64,000 nucleotides of DNA from an uncultured Candidatus Saccharibacteria bacterium (GTDB lineage Bacteria; Patescibacteriota; Minisyncoccia; Phycocordibacterales; UBA2100). Numbering within the stretch: position 1 is the stretch's first letter; every line of letters begins with the position of its first letter. A program made the translations under genes and the position numbers. Shown here in pieces: positions 6,060 to 16,693 of this stretch. The notes beneath the pieces were generated by a model. It worked only from the letters and a program-made list of their open reading frames with translations, was not told the DNA's origin and did not search any database. The DNA lies in contig CAYNRJ010000002.1 of NCBI GenBank assembly GCA_964399865.1, forward strand, positions 161,108 through 225,107, read 5' to 3'.

Positions 6060-6092
6060 CCAGACCCACCGCCTTCGGCGAGGAACACTTGG

Positions 6093-6129
6093 GCCGGCGG
6101 GGACAGCCTCCCCGCCGGCTTTGATTTTT
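6093..6129 (+). terminator. rho-independent terminator
   Basis: gccggcgggg-acagcct-ccccgccggc (10-bp stem) followed by tttgattttt. Confidence 0.65.
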
Positions 6130-6606: not shown

Positions 6607-6945
6607 ATGGAACAAGATCAGCAATTTCTCGAATACGTTGTTAAGGCATTGGTAGATCATCCGAACGATATAAAAATAAATCGTACGGTCGACGAAATGG
6701 GTGTACTCCTCACGCTCTCTGTCCATCAAGATGATATGGGTAAGGTCATCGGACGCTCAGGTCAGACGGCAAAGGCTATCCGCACCGTCCTCCGTGTTGT
6801 CGGGATGAAAAATGACGCCCGCGTCAATTTGAAGATCGAAGAACCAGAAGGTAGTGAGAGAAGCATGGAGCGAAGCGCCCCAGCTACTCCATATCAGCGC
6901 GATACGACCGTTGACGACGTCATCAAAGACTTGAAGGGAGAATAG
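6607..6945 (+). CDS. khpA: KH-domain RNA-binding protein (KhpA/YlqC-like) with a C-terminal extension
   Basis: GKVIGRSGQTAKAIRTVL KH GXXG loop. Sits between rpsP and trmD as in other bacteria. Confidence 0.8.
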   Translation: MEQDQQFLEYVVKALVDHPNDIKINRTVDEMGVLLTLSVHQDDMGKVIGRSGQTAKAIRTVLRVVGMKNDARVNLKIEEPEGSERSMERSAPATPYQRDTTVDDVIKDLKGE

Positions 6946-6964
6946 GGGTCGCTCAGTGGAATGC

Positions 6965-7044
6965 GTTCTTTTCCGTCGCTATCTGCCGCTGCTGCGGCAG
7001 CGCTCGGTCTCGGCGTCGCCACGCCTGCGAAGCCGGAAAAGAGC
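6965..7044. repeat. long imperfect hairpin repeat, copy A
   Basis: Core ctgccgctgctgcggcagcgctcggtctcggcg is ~85% identical to the core at 14826-14878. Outer stem cttttccg/cggaaaag. Confidence 0.5.
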
Positions 7045-7079
7045 GCACACCACCTCGCTTGAAGGTTGGCCAAAATCAT

Positions 7080-7727
7080 ATGATCCACTTTCACATAGTC
7101 ACTCTATTTCAGGACTCAATTGAGCCCTATTTAAAGAGCTCGATACTAGGACGTGCGCAGGAGAGTAAGAAGATAAAGGTCACCTCGTACGATCCGAAGA
7201 AGTTCACGCGCGATAAGTATGGTCGCGTGGACCGTCGTCCATACGGTGGGGGACCTGGAATGGTGCTCGAGCCGGACGGCATGCTCCGTGCTATTGAAAA
7301 AGCAAAAGGGAAAAGAAAAGCGGAAGTGATATTTTTTTCTACTGATGGGAAACTTTTCGATGAGGAGATGGCGAAGAAACTTTCCAAGAAGAAAGATATT
7401 GTGCTTATCTGCGGACACTACGAAGGTGTAGATGAAAGAGTGGCCAAGGTTTCGAAAGCAAAGAAAGTCTCGATGGGCCCGTATGTCTTAACGGGAGGCG
7501 AGCTTCCGGCCGCGACCCTTATTGATGCTGTCTCACGCTTCGTGCCCGGTGTTTTAGGCAAAGCAGAATCCCTGGAAGCTTCCCGTGTCTCAAGTCCCGA
7601 GGTGTACACGCGCCCGGAGGTCCTCGTCTGGAAAGGGAAGAAATACCGTGTGCCGAAGGTCCTTTTGACTGGCCACCACGCTAAAATAGAGGAGTGGAAA
7701 AAGGCTAAAAGGGCCTCGTTGACATAA
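7080..7727 (+). CDS. trmD: tRNA (guanine37-N1)-methyltransferase
   Basis: GRVDRRPYGGGPGMVL and LICGHYEGVDERV motifs of the TrmD SPOUT fold. Start taken at MIHFHIV (track ORF begins at 7059). Confidence 0.9.
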   Translation: MIHFHIVTLFQDSIEPYLKSSILGRAQESKKIKVTSYDPKKFTRDKYGRVDRRPYGGGPGMVLEPDGMLRAIEKAKGKRKAEVIFFSTDGKLFDEEMAKKLSKKKDIVLICGHYEGVDERVAKVSKAKKVSMGPYVLTGGELPAATLIDAVSRFVPGVLGKAESLEASRVSSPEVYTRPEVLVWKGKKYRVPKVLLTGHHAKIEEWKKAKRASLT

Positions 7728-11097: not shown

Positions 11098-14000
11098 ATG
11101 AAGAAAAAAGACGTCATTCCCGCAGATTTCGAAGCAGTCGCAATGCGACTCGCTTCTCCTGATCGTGTCGCTGAATGGAGCTGGGGCGAGATCACAAAGC
11201 CTGAGACCATCAACTACCGCACACAGCGCCCTGAGAAGAACGGTCTCTTCGATGAGCGCGTATTCGGTCCTGAAAAGGATTACGAATGTTACTGCGGTAA
11301 ATACCGTGGTATCCGTTTCCGCGGCATCGTGTGTGAGAAGTGTGGTGTTGAGATCACACGCGCAGTCGTTCGCCGTGAACGCATGGGCCACATTGATCTC
11401 GCAACTCCGGTCGCACACATTTGGTTCCTTCGTGGAATTCCATCTCGTATCGCACTCGTCTTAGGCCTATCCGCTGCAGAAGTTGAAAAGGTTGTGTACT
11501 TCGCTGGATATATCGTTACGTCCGTCGAGGAGCAGGAACGCGCACGCCTCCTCAAAGATCTCGAACAAGAATTCAGCACAAAAAATAAATCAGCTGCAAA
11601 CGCTGATGTAAAAACTGAGCTCAAGGAAAAGGCTCAGAAAGCGAAGAAAGAGATCGAGTCCATCCGTGAAGGTGTAGTTCTCGACGAAGCTGCATATCAC
11701 CTCTATGCCGTGAAATACGGAGCAATGTTCCGCGCAGCAATTGGCGCTGAAGCTCTCTACACGATCCTCAAACAGATCAATATTGATACGTTCATCGAAC
11801 GTTTGAAGAAAGAGTACGCAGAAGCAGGAGCGGCTGAACGCGACAAATTGCGAAAGCGCCTCGGCCTCGCAGAATCCCTCCAGCGCGCAGGTGTCCGCCC
11901 AGAGTGGATGTTCATGACACGTCTTCCAGTTGTTCCACCGGCACTCCGCCCCATGGTCGCTCTTGAAGGTGGTCGTCATGCATCTTCCGACCTCAACGAC
12001 TTGTACCGCCGTGTCATCAACCGAAACAATCGTCTCAAGCGCTTGCAGGCGATTCACGCGCCAGAAGTCATTCTCCGCAACGAAAAGCGCATCCTTCAGG
12101 AAGCAGTAGACGCGCTCCTCGACAACTCAATGCGTCGTGGAAGCGGAGTCCTCGGCATCCTCGGTGGTCGCCGTCGCGCTCTGAAGTCTCTCGCTGATTA
12201 CTTGAAAGGTAAGCACGGATACCTCCGTCAGAACCTTCTCGGTAAACGTGTCGACTACTCAGGTCGCTCGGTCATCGTTGTCGGTCCTAATCTCGCGCTT
12301 GATGAGTGTGGTCTTCCAAAGCACATGGTGCTTGAACTCTTCCGACCATTCGTTATTCAGGGACTTCTCGCACAGGAACTCGCATACAACATCCGTGGCG
12401 CAGGCCGACTTATCGAAGACGAAGCACCAGAAGTGTGGCCAATTCTTGAAAACGCGATCAAAGACAAATACGTTCTTCTAAACCGCGCGCCTACACTTCA
12501 CCGCCAGTCAATCCAGGCGTTCCGCCCAGTTCTAATTGAAGGTAACGCTATCCAGGTGCATCCACTCGTATGTCCTGCATACAACGCAGACTTCGACGGA
12601 GACGCAATGGCCGTCCACGTGCCGCTCTCAGAAGCTGCACAGAAAGAAGCAGGCATGATCATGTCTGCAAACAAGAACATCTTGAAACCAGGTTCAGGCG
12701 ATGTTGTCGTTGCATCTAAGCTTCTCGATATCGTCCTCGGCTGCTACTGGATGACAAGGGGAGTCGCAGGTCTTAAAGGAGAGGGAACTGCATTCCCTTC
12801 TACAAATGCCGCGATCACCGCGCATGACTTCGGTGTCATCGATCTCCGCGCGAAAGTAAAAGTCCTTCCTGGAGACAGTAAGAAATACGCACACTTCGAA
12901 GGTAAGGTTTTCGAGACGACCGTTGGTCGCCTTCTATTCAACTCTGTCCTCCCATCGGATTTTGCGTTCGTCAACGAAGAGATCACGAACAAGCGCATGG
13001 GTGCTCTCGTGCAGGAGCTCGTCGTTAAGTACAAGCTCGACGGTATTCCAAAGATCCTCGACAAGATAAAAGGATTCGGATTCCGCTACGCAACACATGC
13101 AGGTATCACCTGGTCCATCTCTGACGTTGTTGTTCCAAAAATTAAGGAAGAACTCGTTCAGGCAGGACGTGAAGCAGCTGCGCGCGAACAGGAGAACTTC
13201 ATGCAAGGTCTTCTTACAGAAGTTGAACGCCGCCGCATGACTGTTGAGATCTGGGGCAAAATGTCGAACGAACTCCGAAAGCACGTTGTCGACACACTCG
13301 ATGCAACAGGCCCAGTTCACGACATGATCACATCAGGCGCTCGAGGTTCCGTAGTCCAATTACACCAGATGGCCGGTATGAAAGGTCTCATCACAAACCC
13401 ACGTGGAGAGATCATCGAATTCCCTATCACATCATCCTTGAAAGAAGGTCTTACACCGATCGAGTATTTCATCTCGACTCACGGTGCTCGTAAGGGTCTT
13501 GCCGACACCGCGCTCAACACAGCACGTGCCGGTTACCTCACACGCCGCCTCTTCGACGTTGCGCATGACGTAGTGACTCTCGAAGATGACTGTGGCACGA
13601 AGGAGGGCATCATCATTGATCGTCCAGGTAAAGAAAATATTGGAGGCAGCTTCGCTGACCGTGTCACAGGACGCGTGCTCGCAGAAGATACTGCAGGCTT
13701 CAAGCGCGGAACACTTCTTACACGCGACGATGCGAAGAAGGTGGAGGCAAGCGATGCTACAAAGGCAGTCGTTCGTTCTCCGATCACATGTAAAGTAGCC
13801 CGCGGCGTATGTCGCCAGTGCTACGGTATGGATCTCACAACCGGCGAGATGGTAGATGTGGGAGAGGCAGTCGGTGTCATCGCAGCACAAGCTATCGGTG
13901 AACCAGGTACTCAGCTCACAATGCGTACATTCCACTCAGGAGGTGTCGCTACAGTGGGTGGAGACATCACAATGGGTCTTCCACGCGTTGAAGAAGTCTT

Positions 14001-14793
14001 CGAATGCCGTATGCCAAAAGCTCCGGCATCCCTCGCTCGTGTTGCAGGAACGGTTTCTGGCATCAGAAAAGAAGGTCCGGACACTATCCTCACGATCCTT
14101 CCTGATGGCGCATCTCTTGCGAAAACAGCTAAGGCCGCAAAGAAAGAGACTGAGTACGTCATTCACCCACTCCGTACGCTTATCGTCAAAGAAGGGAGTC
14201 ATGTAGAGAAAGGCGACTTCCTCACTGACGGATCTGCAGATCTTGAAGAGCTCTTCCTCCTCGCAGGAAAAGAGGCAGCTCAGGATTACATCATCGGAGA
14301 GATCACACGCATCTACGAACTACAGGGAGTTTCAACCGGACGTAAGCACCTCGAAATCATCGTGAAGCAGATGTTCAGCCGTGTATCTGTTTCTCATTCA
14401 GGTGACACAGGAGTCTCAGCGGGTGAGATCATCGCAGACTTCGAATTCGAACGCATCAACAAGGTGCAGAAAGAATCCGAAGGTGAAGGAGCGAAATCCA
14501 AACAGCTTCTCCTCGGTATCACAGAAGTTTCTCTCACGCGTGCATCCTTCCTCTCAGCAATCTCATTCCAGAACACACCTCGTAAACTCGCAGAAGCAGC
14601 AGTTTCCGGTGCGGTGGACCGCCTCATTGGTCTTAAGGAGAACGTTATCATCGGTCGCCTCATTCCAGCAGGTACTGGCTTCAAGGGCAGTAAGAAGCAC
14701 ACAATGATCGCGCAGATGGAAACGGATCTCGCGTCTCAGGCACCGAGAGAGGAAACGGATTCTCAGAAGCAGAAGGAGTCGATGGAGAGATAA
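11098..14793 (+). CDS. rpoC: DNA-directed RNA polymerase beta' subunit
   Basis: NADFDGDAMAVHVPLS catalytic motif and zinc-binding CYCGKYRGIRFRGIVCEKC. Confidence 0.97.
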   Translation: MKKKDVIPADFEAVAMRLASPDRVAEWSWGEITKPETINYRTQRPEKNGLFDERVFGPEKDYECYCGKYRGIRFRGIVCEKCGVEITRAVVRRERMGHIDLATPVAHIWFLRGIPSRIALVLGLSAAEVEKVVYFAGYIVTSVEEQERARLLKDLEQEFSTKNKSAANADVKTELKEKAQKAKKEIESIREGVVLDEAAYHLYAVKYGAMFRAAIGAEALYTILKQINIDTFIERLKKEYAEAGAAERDKLRKRLGLAESLQRAGVRPEWMFMTRLPVVPPALRPMVALEGGRHASSDLNDLYRRVINRNNRLKRLQAIHAPEVILRNEKRILQEAVDALLDNSMRRGSGVLGILGGRRRALKSLADYLKGKHGYLRQNLLGKRVDYSGRSVIVVGPNLALDECGLPKHMVLELFRPFVIQGLLAQELAYNIRGAGRLIEDEAPEVWPILENAIKDKYVLLNRAPTLHRQSIQAFRPVLIEGNAIQVHPLVCPAYNADFDGDAMAVHVPLSEAAQKEAGMIMSANKNILKPGSGDVVVASKLLDIVLGCYWMTRGVAGLKGEGTAFPSTNAAITAHDFGVIDLRAKVKVLPGDSKKYAHFEGKVFETTVGRLLFNSVLPSDFAFVNEEITNKRMGALVQELVVKYKLDGIPKILDKIKGFGFRYATHAGITWSISDVVVPKIKEELVQAGREAAAREQENFMQGLLTEVERRRMTVEIWGKMSNELRKHVVDTLDATGPVHDMITSGARGSVVQLHQMAGMKGLITNPRGEIIEFPITSSLKEGLTPIEYFISTHGARKGLADTALNTARAGYLTRRLFDVAHDVVTLEDDCGTKEGIIIDRPGKENIGGSFADRVTGRVLAEDTAGFKRGTLLTRDDAKKVEASDATKAVVRSPITCKVARGVCRQCYGMDLTTGEMVDVGEAVGVIAAQAIGEPGTQLTMRTFHSGGVATVGGDITMGLPRVEEVFECRMPKAPASLARVAGTVSGIRKEGPDTILTILPDGASLAKTAKAAKKETEYVIHPLRTLIVKEGSHVEKGDFLTDGSADLEELFLLAGKEAAQDYIIGEITRIYELQGVSTGRKHLEIIVKQMFSRVSVSHSGDTGVSAGEIIADFEFERINKVQKESEGEGAKSKQLLLGITEVSLTRASFLSAISFQNTPRKLAEAAVSGAVDRLIGLKENVIIGRLIPAGTGFKGSKKHTMIAQMETDLASQAPREETDSQKQKESMER

Positions 14794-14797
14794 GAGG

Positions 14798-14911
14798 CGA
14801 CTTTATCCGACGAGCCTCTCTCGGGTCGCTGTCTGCGGCTGCTGCCGCAGCGCTCGGGCTCGGCGCCGCCGCGCCTGTGCAGACCCTCGAAAGGCTCGTC
14901 GGTCTAAAGTC
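14798..14911. repeat. long imperfect hairpin repeat, copy B
   Basis: Outer stems gacttta..taaagtc and ccgacgagcc..ggctcgtcgg. Apical core ctgcggctgctgccgcagcgctcgggctcggcg is homologous to copy A, with compensatory C/G swaps that keep the stem paired. Confidence 0.5.
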
Positions 14912-14971
14912 TTGGGAGGAGGGCTGGGATAATACAATGCATTCTTTCCTGGAAAGGCGCATAATGTTCAC

Positions 14972-16693
14972 ATGTCCGACACTGTAGAGCGAATTAAAGA
15001 CAAACTTCCCATCGTGGATGTTGTGTCGCAATACGTGAAGCTTGAAAGGAGTGGCACAAATATGCGTGCGCGCTGTCCATTCCACGCGGAGCGCTCGCCG
15101 TCTTTTTTCGTCTCGCCTGATCGCGGTACGTATCACTGCTTCGGTTGTAATGTGGGAGGTGACATCTTCTCATTCGTGGAGCAGATTGAAGGACTCGATT
15201 TCAAGGGTGCTCTAAAAATCCTCGCTGAGAAAGCGGGGGTCACTATCGAATACGATCGGGGTCGTCCGGAGGAGCGTAACGAAAAAGATAGACTGTTCGA
15301 ACTACTCGAAGTAGCGACGATATTCTATTCATCGCGTTTGAATGAAGGGGCTAAAAAGTACCTGAAAGAGCGGGGAATTAACGACGAAACGATAAAGGAA
15401 TTTCGCATCGGATGGGCAGGGGATTCGTGGAGCGAAGCGTCCACCTATTTCCGCGAAAAGAAATTCTCCGAAAGGGAAATCGTCGACGCAGGTCTCGCTA
15501 AGAAAGGCGACCGGGGGCTAACGGATAAATTCCGTAATCGCATCATGTTCCCTATCGCAGATTCCGCGGGGCGCATTGTCGGCTTCTCTGGGCGCATCTT
15601 TGGGGCAGATGCTTCTCCTGATGCGCCGAAGTACTTAAATAGTCCCGAGACTCCCCTTTTCCATAAATCTAAAATCCTCTACGGTTTCGACAAGGCAAAA
15701 CAGGCGATGAGGAAGAACATGTGCGCCGTCCTCGTAGAAGGGCAGATGGATCTCCTTGCGTCCCATCAGGCCGGCTGGACGAATACTGTCGCAGTTTCTG
15801 GAACAGCGTTTACCGCAGAGCACGGGGCCCTTATACGTCGTATGACGGATAATCTCGTTATAGCGCTCGACCCGGATGAAGCGGGGTTTAAAGCCGCTGC
15901 GCGTGCGGCAAGAGCTGCTTTACAAGGAAATCTAAATGTGAAAGTCGCACATTTGCCTCCTGAGCTAGACCCCGCTGATCTTATTCAGAAAGAGGGGAAG
16001 GAGGCCTGGAGTAAAGCGATCCGCGAATCCAAAGACATAATTGTTTTCCTCCTTGATGTTCTTGAAAGCCATGCAAAAAATAAAGACGGTTTTCGACGCT
16101 CTGTGGAAACAGTCGTCCTTCCGTTTCTCTCTGATGTTTCGAGTCCTATCGCACGTGAAAGTTATCTCCGGGAGATAGCGGGTCGCCTCGGCGTCTCTGA
16201 GAGAGCTGTAGGTGAAGCTCTCGCGAAATTACCAACACAAAAAGATGTCGCTGGTGCACCGCAAGAGACCCAGCCAGCCACCACTCTTCATTCTGATCCG
16301 AATGCGATGAATAGAGTTAAACAAGCCTTCTCAATTCTTCTGTGGCAAGGGAAACAGCAAAAACCAGATATAGATTTGGCAGCCTTCAAGAAAGAATTCG
16401 AAGAAGCCGTAGGCGAAGAGACCTTGAAAGCTCTTCAATCACTCGAGCTGGCTGAGCAAGAATCCCTTCGCTTCTCCGCGGAGAGATTGTATGGCAAAAG
16501 TAATGCGATTAAACAAGAAGCGAGCACACTTCTCCGGGTAATCCTGCTCGACAGGCTCTCAATTGAGCACTCCGCGGCGACTGCCGCCCTAAAGGCAGCC
16601 GAAGCTCGGGGGGATGACGCTCAGGTGGGTGTGTATATGTCTGTGGTTAAACTGTTGACAGCGCGCATTGCGAAATTGCACACATCAGTGTAA
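14972..16693 (+). CDS. dnaG: DNA primase
   Basis: CHC2 zinc finger CPFHAERSPSFFV...YHCFGC and Toprim EGQMD. Upstream of rpoD as in the conserved dnaG-rpoD operon. Confidence 0.92.
   Translation: MSDTVERIKDKLPIVDVVSQYVKLERSGTNMRARCPFHAERSPSFFVSPDRGTYHCFGCNVGGDIFSFVEQIEGLDFKGALKILAEKAGVTIEYDRGRPEERNEKDRLFELLEVATIFYSSRLNEGAKKYLKERGINDETIKEFRIGWAGDSWSEASTYFREKKFSEREIVDAGLAKKGDRGLTDKFRNRIMFPIADSAGRIVGFSGRIFGADASPDAPKYLNSPETPLFHKSKILYGFDKAKQAMRKNMCAVLVEGQMDLLASHQAGWTNTVAVSGTAFTAEHGALIRRMTDNLVIALDPDEAGFKAAARAARAALQGNLNVKVAHLPPELDPADLIQKEGKEAWSKAIRESKDIIVFLLDVLESHAKNKDGFRRSVETVVLPFLSDVSSPIARESYLREIAGRLGVSERAVGEALAKLPTQKDVAGAPQETQPATTLHSDPNAMNRVKQAFSILLWQGKQQKPDIDLAAFKKEFEEAVGEETLKALQSLELAEQESLRFSAERLYGKSNAIKQEASTLLRVILLDRLSIEHSAATAALKAAEARGDDAQVGVYMSVVKLLTARIAKLHTSV

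Follow-up and report, generated by a model that had tools for sequence, protein, structure and literature searches.

The question raised by this locus is whether a long palindrome that stands just behind two + strand genes is a signal of the transcripts in which it lies or a piece of DNA with a career of its own. A preliminary description of the window, by which we mean the whole 64,000-nucleotide stretch that was analyzed, had reported two copies of a long hairpin behind a khpA-like gene and rpoC. It had suggested a REP-like element, a processing or attenuator hairpin inside the rpsP-khpA-trmD and rpoC-dnaG transcription units, or a protein-binding site. We found that the hairpin belongs to a multicopy family of palindromic repeats, carried by Paceibacteria-type CPR bacteria, that is gained and lost at orthologous sites and is copied whole, with its arms, and that the tolerated positions are only those that do not break genes, just past stop codons or in frame within proteins. 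The element behaves like selfish mobile DNA and not like a gene-specific RNA signal. The probable explanation is a mobile palindrome of the kind represented by Rickettsia palindromic elements (RPEs) and miniature elements of the MITE type, recognized as a folded single strand by a putative enzyme.

Copy A lies between the khpA-like gene and trmD.

6607..6945, + strand: khpA-like KH-domain gene (ORF list; PF13083 KH_KhpA-B is recorded for the identical protein)
6943-6945, + strand: TAG stop codon of the khpA-like gene, 4-5 nt upstream of copy A
6950..7059, + strand (modeled top strand on +): copy A, full palindromic element of ~110 nt (sequence, folds)
6951..6959, + strand: basal module, 5' half (read directly from the sequence)
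6961..6975, + strand: outer arm, 5' half, pairing with 7034-7048 (sequence, fold)
6983..7000, + strand: hairpin P2, 7-bp stem CTGCCGC/GCGGCAG with the conserved loop TGCT (sequence, fold)
7001..7011, + strand: junction strand CGCTCGGTCTC (family alignments)
7012..7025, + strand: hairpin P3, GGCGT CGCC ACGCC (sequence, fold)
7026..7033, + strand: 3' junction TGCGAAGC (minimum free energy [MFE] fold)
7034..7058, + strand: 3' arm and basal module (sequence, fold)
7080..7727, + strand: trmD (PF01746; orthologue alignment)

At the base of copy A, GC pairs with 7057-7058 and AGTGG with CCACC (7050-7054), and a TC/TC 2x2 loop places 6953-6954 opposite 7055-7056; this base is the semi-conserved CGCTCGGCGG...CCGCCTCGCT motif of the family and was found again at the khpA site of congeners. 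The outer arm is locus specific in sequence and includes one G.U and one A.C. The junction strand CGCTCGGTCTC is pyrimidine rich as read on + and purine rich on the complement, and in the MFE fold the GCGA of the 3' junction can pair with TCGC (6976-6979), which closes the junction. Because the orthologue alignment begins at residue 8 of the ORF that opens with TTG at 7059, we placed the true start of trmD at the ATG at 7080 (MIHFH...), 20 nt past copy A. Copy A scored 94.2 bits with one covariance model (R1) and 91.7 bits with the other (R2). It is base for base the same in three independent public assemblies and is therefore no assembly artifact; this identity in three other assemblies also gives no strain-level sign of current mobility.

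Copy B lies between rpoC and dnaG.

11098..14793, + strand: rpoC (ORF list)
14791-14793, + strand: TAA stop codon of rpoC, 5 nt upstream of copy B
14799..14911, + strand: copy B, full palindromic element of 113 nt (sequence, folds, covariance-model match of 105 bits)
14799..14820, + strand: outer arm, 5' half (GACTTTA plus CCGACGAGCCTCTC), pairing with 14889-14911 (sequence, fold)
14821..14827, + strand: TC/TC 2x2 loop and closing helix (sequence, fold, family helix 2)
14833..14850, + strand: hairpin P2, CTGCGGC TGCT GCCGCAG (sequence, fold, covariation)
14862..14875, + strand: hairpin P3, GGCGC CGCC GCGCC (sequence, fold, covariation)
14972..16693, + strand: dnaG (ORF list; congener comparison)

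The TC/TC loop of copy B sets 14821-14822 opposite 14887-14888 and becomes tandem GA/GA on the complementary strand, and its closing helix pairs GGGTC (14823-14827) with GACCC (14882-14886).

Both copies were found where the preliminary description had put them, and most of what it said of them held. The 26-nt core TCTGCSGCTGCTGCSGCAGCGCTCGG common to the two copies has just two occurrences in the window, where 100 shuffles gave an expectation of 0, and copies A and B fold far better than shuffled sequence both as RNA (z = -4.3 and -5.1) and as DNA (z = -4.9 and -6.3). The apical hairpin keeps its pairing through reciprocal C/G swaps (CTGCCGC/GCGGCAG in A, CTGCGGC/GCCGCAG in B), the outer stems pair in each copy although their sequences are unrelated, each copy sits a few bases 3' of a + strand stop codon (TAG of the khpA-like gene, TAA of rpoC), and neither is followed by the run of T that marks an intrinsic terminator. 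The long hairpin itself needed redrawing: copy A is longer than had been proposed (~6950-7059), and the tip consists of two hairpins, P2 and P3, at a three-way junction.

The full element is ~110-140 bp and has a semi-conserved base, long outer arms, and a GC-rich conserved tip. Comparison of khpA-trmD sites set its ends, with the element beginning 0-4 nt past the stop codon. The base, CGCTCGGCGG ... CCGCCTCGCT, combines GC pairs with a TC/TC 2x2 loop and GGCGG/CCGCC. The outer arms vary in sequence from copy to copy with their pairing retained (>90% in the family alignment). At the tip, P2 (a 7-bp stem with the loop TGCT, UGCU/AGCA on the two strands as RNA) and P3 (consensus GGCGY-CGNC-RCGCC) stand on conserved single strands joined to the long stem, and this arrangement forms the three-way junction. 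Like a MITE, the element is small, noncoding, and bounded by terminal inverted repeats. Searches of Rfam 15 on both strands found no family, ribozymes included; the window matches were two tRNAs only, and near copy A there was a single chance-level match (E = 0.5).

The structure has been kept while the sequence changed. Among 56 copies from the genus, standard pairs filled 94.3% of cells, compared to 60.1% in shuffled alignments and 34 to 47% with slid partners, and 28 of 29 pairs had changed on both sides. P2 was paired in 99.2% of cells with 7/7 pairs covarying, and P3 likewise in 99.2% with 4/5. There are three core subtypes in which the architecture and the P2 loop are constant and the stem sequences are wholly different (for example, CUGCCGC/GCGGCAG versus AUUUUUC/GAAAAAU). 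The earlier claim that compensatory change maintains the structure was thus borne out across 56-95 copies and also between the khpA-trmD orthologues of this genome and congener G017. Template-switch correction can create compensatory change in long palindromes without selection, which counts against the reading we favor. P3 is swapped for a longer inserted hairpin in two copies (G000:C1:422556-422662 and, in G037, L051:7-136), and the tip therefore accommodates expansion at P3.

A DNA search of the whole genome of this ultra-small CPR/Parcubacteria bacterium (906 kb, five contigs) returned nine look-alikes, six of which served to build a covariance model that detected 18 copies. When 56 sequences were used for a second covariance model, the count rose to 22 copies in the genome; all are intergenic, and only A and B are inside the window. 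The preliminary description had proposed a search of this genome and its relatives and a covariance model, and these yielded 20 further genome copies and a stem conserved at an orthologous locus, the reverse of the outcome that it had named as a refutation. The copies in this genome follow ~20 unrelated genes, among them rpoC, khpA, groEL, gyrB, typA, ndk, and pth. With the first model, the family was present in 21 of 24 congeners at 2-17 copies each, and essentially no matches appeared in 16 other families of the same order. In the class, the distribution was patchy under the broader model, which located the family in 33 of 301 genomes (26 of 221 genera), with copies counted up to a maximum of 14 per genome. 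The relatives identified through TrmD are metagenome-assembled genomes labeled Parcubacteria or Paceibacterota. In the literature searched, we found no published account of palindromic repeats in CPR bacteria.

Occupancy of orthologous sites varies, as is typical of MITEs, at both khpA-trmD and rpoC-dnaG. Among 30 congeners, the khpA-trmD site was empty in 7 (spacer of -4 to 16 nt), held a member of the element family in ~13, with differing subtypes and arms, and held unrelated palindromes, CTAG rich and others, in ~9. The spot past the khpA stop codon is therefore an insertion hot spot with polymorphic occupancy. The unrelated palindromes there (in L140, L143, L147, L158, and L160 and also in L061) have CTAG-rich arms (e.g., GCTAGCTTCTAGC), arms of the ACAGTTTACAGT type, or AT-rich arms, so several palindrome families compete for one hot spot. 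Congener G017 carries a clear orthologue of copy A at this site, of the same subtype and with arms ~80% identical. Between the two, one pair has changed on one side and two pairs have changed on both (T-A to A-T, C-G to T-A); pairing was therefore preserved through vertical descent.

Between rpoC and dnaG, the element is present in this genome only (0 of ~29 congeners). Many congeners have a classical U-tract terminator after rpoC instead, and the spacer of several holds extra genes. Canonical U-tract terminators occur in the window and after rpoC in congeners, and for this reason we regard the element as a class separate from terminators. One strong canonical terminator lies just 5' of rpsP (window 6091-6121, a 13-bp GC-rich stem with a T tract), so ordinary intrinsic terminators are in use in this genome. 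Upstream of dnaG we observed a GCATAAT box (window 14959-14965) 6-10 nt 5' of the start codon; it is kept in nearly all of ~30 congeners, and the remaining rpoC-dnaG spacer varies from 80 to 1373 nt. The box is probably the -10 box of a leaderless or very-short-leader dnaG transcript, in which case cotranscription of dnaG with rpoC is not required. In G042, the spacer 3' of rpoC (L292) contains a palindrome with the basal motif of the family (GGGGCTCGG ... CCCGCTCGCTTTGG), long arms, and a plain loop where the two hairpins would be. It could represent a relative of the element family, or its precursor, in tip-less form.

Two other origins for the arms were considered and discarded. The arms are not copied from the host flank, given that those of ~13 species at khpA-trmD all differ and resemble neither the conserved 3' end of khpA nor the 5' end of trmD. 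Insertion of the core into preexisting terminators is unsupported, there being no U tracts after the arms and the basal motif being the element's own. Close copies share arms, and the arms are therefore inherited along with the element. Several marks of transposition were looked for. An apparent TCGCT direct repeat, examined as a target-site duplication, belongs to the palindrome (symmetric TC/TC loop), and occupied and empty khpA-trmD sites have diverged too far for base-by-base alignment. There was no ORF-bearing parent element among ~150 matches, and a search with a loose pattern for paired end motifs 60-4000 nt apart gave noise only. No transposition event was found for the element, which counts against the reading we favor.

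We also sought copies within genes in 80 regions of relatives (~1.5 Mb in total). Five copies lie within long ORFs in three genomes of other genera.

G236: in-frame copies in LeuRS and NifS
G258: in-frame copies in UvrD and TsaD
G193: in-frame copy in Tgt

In each gene the frame stays open, Pfam domains flank the insert on both sides, and in four of the five the element is antisense to the host gene. Insertion that leaves the gene intact is how RPEs behave; it was seen in these relatives and in 0 of the 22 copies of this genome. The LeuRS and NifS copies of G236 are near identical over their full length, arms too, which shows that the element is copied entire. Such in-gene copies are hard to reconcile with a dedicated 3'-untranslated-region RNA signal.

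A coding role for the core was also weighed, with a small protein or a peptide resembling a signal peptide as the product. The reading frame would be on the + strand (MRSFPSLSAAAAAALGLG..., 6961-7062, continuing the khpA frame after the TAG) or on the - strand. Four of the seven differences between the A and B cores are synonymous in the 6961-7062 frame, and the in-gene copies of relatives do lie in translated frames. The synonymous pattern is uninformative, however, because GCN repeats align third positions on both strands. Moreover, the indels that distinguish the subtypes have lengths not divisible by three (P3 of 14 or 12 nt; 1 nt in the junction), copy B lacks a start codon in frame, and rpoC enters the core in a frame other than that of khpA. 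A peptide is barely credible, and for the intergenic copies the frame-breaking indels refute a small ORF. Spurious small ORFs do run through copy A (window 6961-7062 on + and 6894-7094 on -), which gene callers may label hypothetical proteins. The - strand frame of copy A (..FSGFAGVATPRPSAAAAAADSDGKE..) is the frame that is translated in the in-gene copies of relatives (..GLSQADEPRGSAEPVGSDSDP..).

The two strands of the palindrome are not equivalent. For most copies, the strand named top here is sense to the upstream gene, and the bottom strand is complementary to the flanking mRNA. Mismatches in top-strand stems were A.C versus G.U at 45:9, and then at 85:18 in the genus and 29:8 in other genera; on the complement, these A.C mismatches are G.U or G.T wobbles. 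A subfamily to which copy B and the base of copy A belong has UC/UC 2x2 loops that similarly become tandem G.A on the complement. Of 48 copies, 41 folded more stably as the bottom strand, with a mean difference of 6.8 kcal/mol (Wilcoxon p = 2e-7). Because a leading-strand C-to-T bias would give the opposite pattern, the bottom-strand fold looks selected. In copies A and B, the two strands fold about equally well with DNA parameters, which counts against the reading of the element as a mobile palindrome recognized as a folded single strand.

Orientation is biased as well. Among the first 18 copies of this genome, 16 are sense to the upstream ORF, with the model beginning 8-28 nt past the stop codon. 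By GC skew, the top strand is on the G-rich leading strand in 19 of the 22 copies. The relatives show the same preference, 75 of their 95 copies having the top strand on the leading strand as judged from local skew (p = 1e-8). Where genes of relatives stand in close tandem, 21 of 31 copies (68%) are sense to them, and about one-third of all copies in relatives are antisense to neighboring genes. The few cases in which gene direction and replication direction disagree split 4 versus 2, so either direction may underlie the bias, which counts against the reading we favor. A fold that favors the bottom strand, together with a bottom strand on the leading-strand template, is also what is seen with the attC sites of integrons, and this likeness is one of logic only.

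These data bear directly on the possibility that the host selects the element as a sense-mRNA structure. Such a structure could end or attenuate transcription independently of a U tract, block 3' exonucleases, or serve as the site of protein binding or processing. The sense bias just described, here and in the tandem-gene contexts of relatives, is what such a role predicts; copy B also occupies the position of the congeners' canonical terminator after rpoC, and the folds are very stable (-53 and -73 kcal/mol). Yet the mRNA-sense strand is the one that folds worse, with A.C where the complement has G.U and UC/UC where it has GA/GA, which argues against a processing or terminator signal as the primary role. 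Nor do the one-third of relatives' copies that are antisense to their neighbors, or the in-frame copies inside five essential genes, four of them antisense, fit an mRNA signal. Seven of 30 congeners have nothing at khpA-trmD, others have unrelated palindromes there, and the upstream genes have no function in common. We consider host selection for a sense-mRNA element unlikely, although it is the main rival. The first proposal, in which the rpsP-khpA-trmD and rpoC-dnaG units have a processing or attenuator hairpin dedicated to them, did not stand up: the element follows ~20 unrelated genes, many congeners lack it at the same sites, other genera carry it in frame in either orientation, and its better-folding strand is the complement of the mRNA.

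A strand that folds better as the complement of mRNA could also act as RNA itself, either as a small cis-antisense RNA or as an RNA intermediate of transposition, with the junction as a protein-binding or catalytic fold. G.U wobbles, tandem G.A loops, and purine-rich junction strands are typical of structured RNA, and in four of the five in-gene copies the mRNA is the bottom strand. We saw no conserved promoter-like motif beside the copies, however, and a scan of the region did no better than shuffles; most copies sit in codirectional operons with 8-80 nt to the next gene, and neither strand matches an Rfam family. A bottom-strand RNA is thus quite improbable.

The mobile palindrome that we favor would work at the level of DNA. 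In the single-stranded-DNA reading of the three-way junction, the strand that is read is probably the bottom one. We infer that a trans-acting enzyme moves or maintains the element by recognizing the folded bottom strand as single-stranded DNA. By the logic of attC sites, surviving copies would mostly be those whose bottom strand lies on the leading-strand template, where it would rarely become single stranded. In the window, the intercistronic RNA of khpA-trmD and the 3' end of rpoC would only secondarily gain very stable hairpins from the element, and these may stabilize or attenuate the transcripts, though the family would not have been selected for such an RNA effect. Effects on the khpA-trmD and rpoC transcripts would then probably be incidental or secondarily exploited. 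We entertain as a doubtful possibility the more specific proposal that the three-way junction is the working part of an undescribed, Paceibacteria-specific single-stranded-DNA system, whose enzyme would transplant or copy the whole palindrome and in which only copies with their active strand on the leading-strand template would persist. The bottom strand could be read by the single Xer-like tyrosine recombinase of this genome (G000:C1:508844-509668) or else by a structure-specific nuclease or a primase-polymerase.

An enzyme that reads folded single strands was sought among RAYT proteins. This genome encodes one RAYT-like Y1 HUH protein (PF01797, 224 amino acids [aa], with HUH and Y motifs), so the palindrome could be a REP/BIME-type element mobilized by the resident RAYT. 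Many genomes of the class have PF01797 (179 of 301), and so do 13 of the 15 with at least four copies of the element. Across the class, however, it is not associated with the element, as it occurs in 22 of 33 element-bearing and 157 of 268 element-free genomes, and the complete genome G258 (2 contigs) is element rich, with at least nine copies, and has no PF01797. The RAYT-like gene of this genome is bracketed by a different 23-nt hairpin, GCAGTGAGGTnnnACCTCACTGC, of which there are five genome copies. At 110-113 nt, the element is three times the length of a REP, is branched, and has no conserved 5' tetranucleotide at its foot. Mobilization by this RAYT is very improbable, and the element is not a true REP/RAYT system, being without linkage to a RAYT gene. 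Of the REP-like proposal, what remains is the dispersed repeat, which makes it the nearest of the three original options; the defining REP/RAYT features are missing.

The RAYT-like gene itself lies outside the window on the - strand (C1:323095-323769). The 23-nt hairpin, GCAGTGAGGTGGGACCTCACTGC, stands on both of its sides (gene with hairpins, G000:C1:323071-323812 = L277 ~1234-1975), and three more copies are at C1:239654, C1:260419, and C2:184275. This hairpin is likely the cognate REP of the RAYT-like gene, and the two together look like a small classical REP/RAYT system separate from the three-way-junction element.

Integrons offer another enzyme that reads folded strands. In 31 genomes of the genus, the integron integrase model TIGR02249 reached at best 93 bits against a cutoff of 265, and the matches below the cutoff were generic Xer-like recombinases, as in controls. 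We rejected the element as an integron attC site, as there is no integrase, there are no cassette arrays, and the copies are dispersed. The comparison with attC is nevertheless instructive. These sites are imperfect palindromes of 57-141 bp located right after an ORF, they are recognized by structure and not by sequence, only their bottom strand folds productively, and their terminal structure can be branched (PMC5371416). In sedentary chromosomal integrons, the attC bottom strand is on the leading-strand template, which limits folding and stabilizes the array (PMC5371416). The element differs in that it is without integrase or cassette arrays, its neighbors are core housekeeping genes, it conserves the tip where attC conserves the base (R and L boxes), and in-gene copies exist.

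Its closest analogues are RPEs and MITEs. RPE-1 to RPE-10 are palindromic and have inserted in frame into unrelated housekeeping genes (PMC10969869). Like the element, they are ~100-150 bp, nonautonomous, found in reduced genomes without a known transposase, and dispersed both between genes and in frame within genes, where they add peptide. They belong to another phylum, and the likeness drawn here concerns behavior, so that we do not file the element among them. In contrast to RPEs, the element has a GC-rich three-way-junction tip conserved classwide, variable arms, and a strand-asymmetric fold, and its 22 copies in this genome all lie between genes, directly next to stop codons. MITEs such as ERIC/IRU and Neisseria Correia/NEMIS elements share with it the small noncoding form, long inverted arms, insertion polymorphism among relatives, and cotranscription with neighbors. 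Unlike in MITEs, the conserved part of the element is its center, the tip, and not only the ends, and neither a target-site duplication nor a parent insertion sequence with the same ends was found.

Two further systems resemble it in position. The REP/BIME elements of Enterobacteria and Pseudomonas are extragenic palindromes just past stop codons that are recognized as folded single strands by an HUH enzyme, the RAYT, and can stabilize upstream mRNA; unlike the element, REPs are simple hairpins of 20-40 nt, have a conserved 5' tetranucleotide (GTAG-like), and flank their RAYT gene. Rho-independent terminators are likewise GC-rich hairpins past a stop codon, and copy B takes the place of one after rpoC. 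In contrast to them, the element lacks a U tract, is three to four times longer and branched, and also occurs between tightly coupled cistrons and inside genes.

CPR/Patescibacteria have tiny, streamlined genomes, yet they carry dozens of these ~110-bp GC-rich palindromes with a branched tip conserved classwide. Such palindromes are either selfish DNA that has prospered without having been described or a host structure that some reader recognizes. If the doubtful proposal of a dedicated single-stranded-DNA system were true, it would add to HUH/REP-IS200 and IntI/attC a third kind of mobility in which structure is what is read, and it could write loops of 35-40 residues into essential proteins. 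The mismatch spectrum indicates one strand, so the element is a clean system in which to ask which strand of a palindrome is read in vivo. For annotation, its hairpins mimic noncoding RNAs, terminators, and small ORFs, and as in-frame loops they enlarge essential proteins. For protein evolution, it supplies ready-made insertions in LeuRS, UvrD, TsaD, Tgt, and NifS. The LeuRS of G236 (L262:7017-10559), at 1181 aa, has an embedded Ser_hydrolase-like domain (residues 243-350) and a NUDIX domain (558-683) in addition to its in-frame palindromic insert.
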